From a virus, in IMG/VR virus record IMGVR_UViG_3300045051_000531: a stretch of DNA of 64,000 bases; one strand, 5' to 3'. Below the pieces are notes generated by a model, which did no database searches, was not told where the DNA came from, and saw only the letters and a list, made by a program, of their open reading frames with translations. This document shows, piece after piece, positions 447 through 6,482 of this stretch. Numbering within the stretch: position 1 is the first letter of the stretch; each line of letters begins with the position of its first letter. The translations under genes were made by a program, and so were the position numbers.

Positions 447-530
447 GGTGTGGCGGGGCGGGGCGGGGCGAGGCGTGGCGGGGCGCGGCATGGCAGGGCA
501 GGGCAAGGCCAGCTCTTTACGAAGCGCTGG
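447..530 (+). ncRNA. GGY-NN pentamer array 1 with 3' hairpin (putative guide RNA, VIPR-like vrRNA)
   Basis: 12 in-phase pentamers at 447-506 (GGTGT, then 11 GGC-NN), then GG and hairpin ccagctctt-TACG-aagcgctgg (509-530, 8 of 9 bp paired). Confidence 0.8.
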
Positions 531-560
531 GGTTGACGAACTCATACGTACCACATCCGC

Positions 561-664
561 GGCATGGCAAGGCTAGGCCTGGCATGGCAGGGCGATGCGG
601 GGCGAGGCGTGGCAGGGCCTGGCATGGCAAGGCTTGGCGAGGGTTTCTTTTTACGAAAAGAAAC
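561..664 (+). ncRNA. GGY-NN pentamer array 2 with 3' hairpin (putative guide RNA, VIPR-like vrRNA)
   Basis: 16 in-phase pentamers at 561-640 (15 GGC-NN, one TGC-GG), then GG and perfect 9-bp hairpin gtttctttt-TACG-aaaagaaac (643-664). Confidence 0.85.
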
Positions 665-3824: not shown

Positions 3825-4625
3825 ATGGAACTGCGTGATGAGTTCGGGCTGTTCCGGTGGTACCAGGGTATCTTCTTTCCGCACACCCTGAACGACCCCA
3901 ATTTCGATTACCAACGGATGTATGGTCTGCTGACCAAGCTGCAGATCATGTTTAACTCATGGACCCCGAAACCGTGCCGCGGCATGAAGTTCATGACCCC
4001 CGGGCTTCGGGCCAACGACCTCAAGGGGCACCAGTACTGCGGGCACCCGCTATGCCCGACCTGCTGGCATCGCCGCCAGACCGAGCTGATCCAAGCCCTA
4101 GCTGAGATCCCTGAGGTCCCCTGGCTGTGCTTCCGGTCGACCTGGTTCGTGAAGTGGGACATCGATGTGCATCCCCGCTGCGTGACCCGGTTCAAGGGAG
4201 CCGGGAGCCGGTACAAGCTGCTGGCCTACACGCTGAACTGGGACGCCAGCGTGGCCTTCCTGGACGACGAAGACGCCAAGCACGACGAGTTCGGTGGCCA
4301 GCTCTCCTACCAGCTCCTCGGCCTGTTCTGGTCACACCGCGAGGTCCGGGATACCCAGGACACCGCCGGGCAGGTGAATGTCCGTTTAGACCCTACAACG
4401 GGGCACAGTGAAACCATCGGGATCGTCGACAAGGACTACGTCGCCAGGGACCAACTCCTGCCGACCTGGTGGGCCAAGCTTCGGCACCCCTGGCAGTACC
4501 GCGGGCACACCTTGTTCCGGGACTACATCGAGCGGTTCTACGACTACAAGCCAGCCGGGAAGTCGTGGACCCGGATACAGAGTCAGAACAAGGATGAGTC
4601 CAAACAGACAACCAAGGCTAAATGA
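3825..4625 (+). CDS. hypothetical protein with C-x3-LCPxC Zn motif (Rep/IS91-like N-terminus)
   Basis: YCGHPLCPTCWHRR; strong RBS AGAAAGGA. Confidence 0.55.
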   Translation: MELRDEFGLFRWYQGIFFPHTLNDPNFDYQRMYGLLTKLQIMFNSWTPKPCRGMKFMTPGLRANDLKGHQYCGHPLCPTCWHRRQTELIQALAEIPEVPWLCFRSTWFVKWDIDVHPRCVTRFKGAGSRYKLLAYTLNWDASVAFLDDEDAKHDEFGGQLSYQLLGLFWSHREVRDTQDTAGQVNVRLDPTTGHSETIGIVDKDYVARDQLLPTWWAKLRHPWQYRGHTLFRDYIERFYDYKPAGKSWTRIQSQNKDESKQTTKAK

Positions 4626-5374: not shown

Positions 5375-6482
5375 CCCGGCGTTCATAGCTGCTGGCGACA
5401 TTCATCTGACCCCGTTGATCTGGCGACCCCAGGTCAACATCACCGGGGACGCCGAGCTCGCCTTCGCGGCGCTCATCGATGTCGCCATTGAGAACATGCT
5501 CCCGTTGGTCCTCGTTGGCGACATCTTCGACACCGTGGAGCCCGGTCCCCAGATGATCCGGTTCTTCCGGAAGCAGATGGACCGGCTCTACGATGAACGG
5601 GTCCATGTGTACGCCATCGATGGGAACCATGATAAACGGAGTCCTTCGTGGTCTTCCGCGGTACATGAATGGGTCCAGTATATTGGTGATGGTCACCAGG
5701 TCACCATCGGCGGGGTCAACTGCCGTGGTCTCGATTACGCGCTCAAAGATGACATCGTGGAGTCCCTGGCCAAGCTGACCCAGGACCCCGAGATCGGTAA
5801 GACCCAGGTCTTGTTCCTGCATCAGGCCGTCAAGCAGGCCCTGAAGTGGGAAGGGAAGTGGAACTGTGATCTGGACTGGGTTCCGAAGTCGATCCCGTTG
5901 GTGGTCATGGGGGACATCCATGTGGAATGGGATCACGATCTCGGGGCCGGGCGTCGAGCCCTGTACACCGGTGCCACGCATCTCCGTGACATCGGACAGC
6001 GCGGCCCGAAGAGCTGCGTCCTGGTGAACCGTGATCTGACGTGGTCCAGGCTGCCGTTGCCGTACCGGCTCGTGGAACGCTTCAACCTGAGCAAAGCGGA
6101 GGACGTCGATGCCGTGGAAACCTGGCTCAAGGAAGCAACAGCGACGGTGCCAGAACTGCCACCGGTCGCGTACTGCTTCCATGTCGGTGCCTGCAAGGCC
6201 CGGCTTGGCGAGTTACGACGGACGTACAACGCCTCAGCGTTTATCGTCATGGAAGCCGTCCAGACGCCGGAGGAGCTCACGCTGGACCAGGAGCTCCTCG
6301 CGGATCTCCCCGTGGAAGCCCGGCCGCAGGATCAGCTGATCACACCTGAGGAACTCCTCAAAGAGATCATCGATCCGGAACGTGAACCCGATGCGTTCCA
6401 GTTCACCTTGGATCTCCTGCAGTCCAAGCAGAGCGTGTTCGACATGATCAAGGAGCGTCGCGAGAAGTTCTTCGCGGCTTAG
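5358..6482 (+). CDS. sbcD: Mre11/SbcD-like DNA repair nuclease (metallophosphoesterase)
   Basis: Motifs GDIHL, GDIFD, DGNHDK, LFLHQ, GDIH, YTG. Confidence 0.9.
   Translation: MPPTSDPAFIAAGDIHLTPLIWRPQVNITGDAELAFAALIDVAIENMLPLVLVGDIFDTVEPGPQMIRFFRKQMDRLYDERVHVYAIDGNHDKRSPSWSSAVHEWVQYIGDGHQVTIGGVNCRGLDYALKDDIVESLAKLTQDPEIGKTQVLFLHQAVKQALKWEGKWNCDLDWVPKSIPLVVMGDIHVEWDHDLGAGRRALYTGATHLRDIGQRGPKSCVLVNRDLTWSRLPLPYRLVERFNLSKAEDVDAVETWLKEATATVPELPPVAYCFHVGACKARLGELRRTYNASAFIVMEAVQTPEELTLDQELLADLPVEARPQDQLITPEELLKEIIDPEREPDAFQFTLDLLQSKQSVFDMIKERREKFFAA

Follow-up and report, generated by a model that had tools for sequence, protein, structure and literature searches.

What are the two G-rich pentamer tracts that occupy an intergenic region of this virus record, and are they, as the first-pass annotation proposed, the guide parts of two separate RNA units, each closed by a 3′ hairpin? 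The tracts are located close to the start of the window (the whole 64,000-nt stretch of DNA that was analysed), which comes from a virus record of 191.5 kb. We consider it very probable that positions 447-1596 constitute a VIPR (Viral Interference Programmable Repeat) locus, composed of two vrRNAs with structured 3′ tails, a T5orf172-type gene and vipr. VIPR, first described in 2026, is a CRISPR-related, phage-borne system of RNA-guided DNA silencing (bioRxiv 10.64898/2026.04.26.720920). Its vrRNA is made up of 9-16 YNNGG repeats and a conserved structured 3′ tail (10.64898/2026.04.26.720920). Under this assignment the locus reads as follows.

447-508, + strand: repeat tract of vrRNA 1, 12 GGY-NN units and a closing GG (equivalent to GG and 12 YNNGG)
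509-550, + strand: 3′ tail of vrRNA 1; stem A 509-517/522-530 with a UACG loop, stem B 531-534/539-542 with a GACG loop, AUACG at 544-548
561-642, + strand: repeat tract of vrRNA 2, 16 GGY-NN units and a closing GG
643-684, + strand: 3′ tail of vrRNA 2; stem A 643-651/656-664 with a UACG loop, stem B 665-668/673-676 with a GGCG loop, AUACG at 678-682
702-1151, + strand: T5orf172/MUG113 (GIY-YIG superfamily) gene, domain at 702-971; candidate vap-like accessory
970-1596, + strand: vipr gene, encoding a 208-aa minimal RAMP/Cas7-like protein with the G-loop GLGTFRQHFGKF

The units proper cover 447-506 in tract 1 and 561-640 in tract 2, and the closing GG is found at 507-508 and 641-642, respectively. 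TRF assigns both tracts a period of 5, and their repeat counts (12 and 16) are within the published VIPR range. Parsed by units, the NN string of tract 1 is GT GG GG GG GA GT GG GC AT AG AG AA, and that of tract 2, in which the eighth unit is degenerate (TGCGG), is AT AA TA CT AT AG GA GG GA GT AG CT AT AA TT GA. Both tracts are confined to the intergenic region 421-701, between a 73-aa ORF (199-420) and the T5orf172/MUG113 gene that starts at 702. It might be argued that array 2 is coding, as an ORF (564-1151), open from the ATG at 564, reads through it in frame and would give the T5orf172 protein an N-terminal extension. We regard this as next to impossible. The periodicity of the tract is 5, not 3, and G-rich repeats simply lack stop codons; moreover, the ATG at 702 is preceded by a GAGAGG ribosome-binding site, and T5orf172 homologs in 16 other loci begin at a conserved M..(Y/F)VY right after the array.

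Searches for familiar RNA elements gave no matches: Rfam families were absent at gathering thresholds, and no tRNA was detected in the window. Neither a CRISPR repeat-spacer array nor a multi-gene cas operon accompanies the tracts, which consist of pentamers only and whose neighboring ORFs have no Cas matches in Pfam. The scan of positions 1-2000 for promoters and terminators returned no promoter-like site and nothing useful on the + strand. Across 444 arrays, a crude -10 box occurs upstream in 3.4% against 0.6%, a weak enrichment that is confounded by partial repeats. For the 73-aa ORF that precedes vrRNA 1, Pfam gives a weak match to a helix-turn-helix family (HTH_6, E 0.049). Its product might be a small DNA-binding regulator; the ORF is not kept beside vipr in the relatives examined.

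The protein encoded next to the arrays provides the link to VIPR. Clustering of the ORFs that flank such arrays revealed a family of ~200-aa proteins, present in 83 loci and including the product of the window ORF 970-1596. This family corresponds to phrog_4652, a group of unknown function without a Pfam match, to which the window protein alone is related with an E-value of 0.002. We used two sequence profiles, one of 41 family members (A1) and one restricted to the window's own subclade (A5). When compared with PDB, the A1 profile matched a single structure, 36pp (chain 36pp_D), annotated as 'SUSP1 Vipr protein', with an E-value of 8.6e-36 over residues 1-188, and the alignment takes in both the RP...W and the GxGxxRPxFGRF motifs. 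The same chain was the sole match of the A5 profile (E 1.1e-5). The phmmer search of PDB with the window protein alone retrieved no chain; beyond its own subclade, the protein is 12-22% identical to members of A1. The AF2 model of the 970-1596 protein has a pLDDT of 91.9, and its best Foldseek matches are Csm3 and Cmr4 (E 7e-6, TM 0.5-0.6) and type VII Cas7. The 208-aa product of 970-1596 is, judging by homology and by the modeled fold, a Vipr protein: it has the features of a minimal single-RRM RAMP with a G-loop and is a homolog of SUSP1 Vipr.

The association of such proteins with pentamer arrays extends well beyond the window. The pattern of 10 consecutive GGCNN units matched >120 IMG/VR contigs, and the ~200-aa Vipr family is encoded in 83 of these loci; in the loci found by the pattern, arrays never occur on both strands of one locus. 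A protein-only search with the window Vipr gave 41 IMG/VR, 4 GTDB and 80 metagenome loci. Among these, 38 of 41 and 76 of 84 (114/125 together) have arrays in the orientation of vipr, and none of the 125 has an array on the opposite strand. The window conforms to this arrangement, with the arrays (447-642) adjacent to vipr (970-1596) and both on the + strand. In the loci found by the pattern, a gene on the same strand starts at most 150 nt downstream of 159 of 260 arrays, compared with 29 of 260 in the antisense control. These data also bear on whether the arrays act as DNA, that is, as protein-binding iterons or as tracts that form G-quadruplexes or R-loops in an origin or a regulatory region, where the inverted repeats would be bound as DNA. 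Such a role would suit the G-rich strand, with its GG every 5 nt, and the intergenic location. It does not account for the strand bias relative to vipr or for the excess of same-strand gene starts downstream; besides, a 5-bp period misfits one face of duplex DNA, the covariation of the stems (see below) preserves pairing and not sequence, and the neighboring protein is homologous to one solved in complex with such RNA. We therefore consider it very improbable. Early candidates, namely a TRAP/CsrB-like protein sponge, an R-loop origin, G-quadruplexes and iterons, were dropped once the link to Vipr appeared. The identification of the window locus as VIPR draws on direct observations: the sequence anatomy, the homology to Vipr, the linkage of protein and arrays over >100 loci and the covariation between the two tail copies.

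Each tract passes directly, after its last repeat, into a conserved structured 3′ tail. In stem A of tail 1, ccagctctt (509-517) and aagcgctgg (522-530) enclose TACG (518-521); in that of tail 2, gtttctttt (643-651) and aaaagaaac (656-664) enclose TACG (652-655). The first-pass annotation had described both arrays as (GGY-NN)n, GG and a 9-bp stem with a UACG loop. This architecture is indeed common to the two, except that only stem A of tail 2 has all nine pairs, while that of tail 1 has eight of nine, with a mismatch of T514 and C525. The annotation had also noted that stem length, loop and register coincide despite different stem sequences, and the two tails do align without gaps over ~44 nt. 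Its 30-nt linker (531-560), on the other hand, turned out to be partly structured: a spacer exists and is shorter, as 531-542 form a second stem, stem B, and 544-548 are the conserved AUACG. Stem B has 4 bp in each copy (GGTT-GACG-AACT at 531-542, GGTC-GGCG-GACC at 665-676). AUACG recurs in tail 2 although no array comes next; since both stem B and AUACG are thus present 3′ of tract 2, with no array beyond, each unit has them as part of its own 3′ side.

The case for these structures is comparative. The extra-stable form of the UNCG tetraloop is C(UNCG)G. In the window the loop is UACG, as had been pointed out, and the pair closing it is U-A, not C-G. Fold energies are -9.9 and -8.6 kcal/mol, with z-scores of -1.2 and -1.75 relative to shuffled sequences, neither hairpin being significant. 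Because the energies are modest and the closing pair is U-A, we relied on comparison of the two copies rather than on thermodynamics. In stem A, both partners are changed at five of the nine positions with pairing retained, and stem B adds one more compensated pair. Taken over the 13 pairs of the named structure and the two tails, 25 of 26 cells are paired and 6 pairs are doubly changed. Sliding the 3′ partners by 1-3 columns lowers pairing to 42-65% of cells, and 10 of 500 shuffles reach the observed value. The covariation-like signal noticed at first is thereby borne out, for two paralogous copies within the same genome; it is limited to these copies because no other locus yielded this exact tail and hairpins are absent after the upstream arrays of the closest relatives. 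Invariant between the two tails are UUUACGAA (the loop with its closing bases), GGU and AUACG. The retention of UUUACGAA, stem B and AUACG while the stems vary points to recognition of specific bases, and the conserved loop and flanking bases suggest a handle that may be recognized sequence-specifically.

Terminal hairpins are found in other loci too, in forms that differ from those in the window. A strong hairpin (at least 8 pairs) directly follows 24.5% of arrays, compared with 13.4% of random sites in the same loci (Fisher p 1e-6). The anticipated hairpin in homologous arrays is therefore enriched without being general, and it is missing after the upstream arrays of the closest relatives (L035, L122, L123 and L167), which are followed immediately by the next gene. 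In L128 (three times) and in L133, the register and the outer stem GG+CCAGC...GCTGG are as in window tail 1. L013 and L031 have hairpins with UUCG, UUUG or UACG loops after the last unit, in the form ACAC-hairpin-AGUUUGC. L002 has a 55-nt spacer, and long conserved spacers are present elsewhere, too. In seven loci (L022, L024, L065, L069, L097, L117 and L163) the array-terminal hairpin is followed by a U-run and resembles an intrinsic terminator. As a side observation, arrays in L012 (about 4290-4560) and L016 (about 5468-5510) abut a sequence resembling the 3′ half of a tRNA (GGTTCGACTCC...), which may be a processing signal or a tail.

The covariance model of the window tail (R1) scored the two tails at 60.7 (tail 1) and 62.3 (tail 2) bits. 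Over ~1.5 Mb of related loci it revealed no convincing second lineage, the best other match being a weak one in L031 (25 bits). The closest available Vipr relative is 58% identical and its tails are different. Given that R1 finds nothing comparable and no Vipr is closer than 58%, the double-hairpin tail appears to be private to the window lineage. Clade-specific tails have been reported for VIPR in the preprints of 2026 (bioRxiv 10.64898/2026.04.26.720920, 10.64898/2026.04.26.720927 and 10.64898/2026.10.15.759431), in line with a private tail in the window.

The diversity of the tails raises the question of whether they have any specific role with respect to Vipr. The tracts could be vrRNAs and the hairpins generic end elements, such as Rho-independent-like terminators, signals for processing by RNases or barriers to 3′ exonucleases. 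The U-run hairpins in the seven loci above agree with this, and so does the wide variation of tails between lineages, as expected if any stable structure serves. The window hairpins themselves are of another kind. They are followed by GGUUGACG and GGUCGGCGG and not by a U tract; there is no T run after 530 or 664, and the scan gave no terminator site on the + strand at these places. The conservation of UUUACGAA, stem B and AUACG between copies whose stems vary speaks against an arbitrary stable structure, and for SUSP1 the consensus tail is treated in the VIPR preprints as making the vrRNA competent for formation of the Vipr complex. On balance, we consider purely generic end elements unlikely. 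On the minus strand, 664-677 scores terminator-like, as the T-rich arm of stem A comes after stem B in this direction; the neighboring genes are all on the + strand.

The gene between the arrays and vipr encodes a domain matched in Pfam by MUG113 (E 2.4e-10) and T5orf172 (E 1.7e-7). In 17 loci, the window among them, a T5orf172 homolog lies on the vipr strand at a distance of -19 to +53 nt from the start of vipr. The 16 others (L013, L035, L065, L097, L122-L124, L167-L171, L173, L179, L181 and L189) are those of the closest relatives of the window Vipr. Among loci with a Vipr at least 46% identical to that of the window, only L125/L172 (one contig) lacks the gene. Its presence in nearly all close relatives argues that the gene is a conserved partner and not a selfish element that was inserted recently. 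We consider the T5orf172 gene, on the basis of this gene neighborhood, a candidate VIPR accessory gene. The published accessory genes are vap1-6; neither 'T5orf172' nor 'GIY-YIG' appears in the main text of the VIPR discovery and competition preprints. In all 17 loci the T5orf172 frame stays open for 60-147 codons past the domain into vipr (971-1151 in the window), with vipr always in the +1 frame. A programmed frameshift, a fusion and overlapping genes were each entertained and rejected as explanations, the overrun being mostly compositional. It is probably so because 160 vipr genes that have no T5orf172 neighbor keep this frame open as well (median 66 codons).

How such a locus might work can be proposed from the published systems; transcription, filament assembly, DNA targeting and tail function are inferred for the window from that literature. 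The anatomy predicted by the first-pass annotation, two guide-RNA units with a 3′ hairpin, fits that of published vrRNAs, and the adjacent gene encodes a Vipr homolog; the published vrRNA architecture had, in effect, been reconstructed there from the letters of the DNA alone. By analogy with SUSP1, transcription of the two units would give products of about 105 and 125 nt. Vipr would polymerize along the vrRNA with one protomer per repeat, as in the solved SUSP1 complex. The GGY bases would be held by Vipr, and the NN dinucleotides would read double-stranded DNA by the (xNN)n rule, the one-base-skip code by which VIPR dinucleotides read dsDNA according to the preprints of 2026. The NN strings could thus direct binding to matching competitor DNA. 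In SUSP1, a 3′ pseudoknot caps the helical filament, and protomers 8-12 near the pseudoknot are resolved in every assembly intermediate (VIPR preprints). The window tail, which starts right after the last repeat with the 9-bp stem and its UACG loop and continues with the 4-bp stem and its GNCG loop and AUACG, likely has the same role as this pseudoknot, namely capping the 3′ end of the filament and fixing its register. It would also identify the RNA to the phage's own Vipr as a cognate guide, and would shield the 3′ end or determine its position.

A more far-reaching interpretation is that the subclade represents a distinct virus-borne VIPR variant, characterized both by an obligate partner with a T5orf172/GIY-YIG-type nuclease fold and by a phage-private double-hairpin handle with UACG and GNCG loops. 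We put it forward tentatively, as a possibility that is rather doubtful in this full form. If true, the system might link recognition by guide RNA to DNA cleavage in conflicts between phages, and a private handle would stop the solo guides of rivals from hijacking the phage's own Vipr.

The characterized systems of SUSP1 and of a Pseudomonas fulva prophage (type II VIPR) are similar to the window locus in several respects. They, too, have a minimal RAMP Vipr beside non-coding tracts of 9-16 YNNGG with variable NN, a structured 3′ tail right after the last repeat, a phage as the carrier and no self-target. The differences concern the tail, the neighboring gene, the gene order and the hosts. The SUSP1 tail is a pseudoknot of ~40 nt, whereas that of the window consists of two simple hairpins and AUACG; the neighboring gene in the characterized systems is the DNA-binding vap1 instead of a T5orf172/GIY-YIG-type gene; and in the window, unlike in those systems, both vrRNAs are upstream of the genes. 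Finally, the characterized systems are from Enterobacteria and Pseudomonas, whereas the GTDB relatives of the subclade are in MAGs of Planctomycetota and Ignavibacteriaceae. Other Vipr lineages (L013/L031, L128/L133, L002 and L012/L016) also have a structured constant element after the tract, with different sequences, lengths and loops. A broader parallel exists with class 1 CRISPR crRNAs (types I-E and I-F, with a Cas6-bound 3′ hairpin handle and a Cas7 backbone), as here, too, a Cas7-fold protein would polymerize on a guide capped by a stem-loop. Unlike class 1 CRISPR, the window has no CRISPR array, no Cas6, Cas5 or large subunit and no adaptation genes. The period also differs (6 nt with 5 read in class 1 CRISPR, 5 nt with 2 read per unit in the window), and the guides are hard-wired genes instead of acquired spacers.

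Only two features extend what has been published on VIPR: the double-hairpin tail, specific to this lineage, and the T5orf172 partner. The locus places a complete VIPR arrangement in a virus record of 191.5 kb, remote from the characterized systems of Enterobacteria and Pseudomonas, and implies that two simple hairpins that covary can take the place of a pseudoknot as the 3′ handle of the guide. With two natural copies, five compensated stem pairs and fixed loops, it offers a ready design for asking which parts of the tail are read by Vipr. The pair of T5orf172 gene and vipr, which is conserved, is a lead on how some viral VIPR systems might have activities beyond silencing.

We also looked for DNA that the guides might target. 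The search of the 191.5-kb genome under four skip rules gave no self-target, the best matches (20 of 32 and 17 of 24 NN letters) being within the range of shuffled guides; absence of self-targets is also published for VIPR (VIPR preprints of 2026). External searches were for exact or near-exact matches, while the VIPR papers accept at least 80%. At this stringency, four exact 10-unit xNN windows of the guides had no match in IMG/VR, and one exact 11-unit window of guide 2 had none in the GTDB species-representative prokaryote genomes. With up to 3 mismatches allowed, guide 2 had no match in 401 genomes of the phylum to which the Planctomycetaceae MAG G001 belongs. Five related records yielded no target either, and decoding the NN strings as codon letters produced no recognizable motif.

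As to the hosts, the GTDB loci with a relative of the window Vipr (L163-L166) are in MAGs of Phycisphaerae, Pirellulales, Planctomycetaceae and Ignavibacteriaceae. These Planctomycetota and Ignavibacteriaceae MAGs give no more than a hint on the host range of the subclade. The pattern of 10 GGCNN units also occurs, in a tract of ~240 nt, in the Mycobacterium phages BobaPhett, ByChance, Mattes, SwagPigglett, DRBy19 and James. In BobaPhett (NC_051636.1, our locus L001), where the features are at about 1320-1560, 1561-2307 and 2322-2777, the tract is partly annotated as hypothetical protein gene 51 and is followed by the Vipr homolog gp52 (phrog_4652) and by gp53 (phrog_15946). Relatives of gp53 are found beside arrays in 26 loci and may represent a vap. 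In L154 (IMGVR_UViG_3300018080_000105), a virus contig that with 184 kb is comparable in size, at least five tandem vrRNA units are present upstream of vipr at 1800-2300, separated by the 27-nt tail GCATGTTCTTTTACGTTGAGCCATCAC, which has the motif YUUUUACG in common with the window tails.
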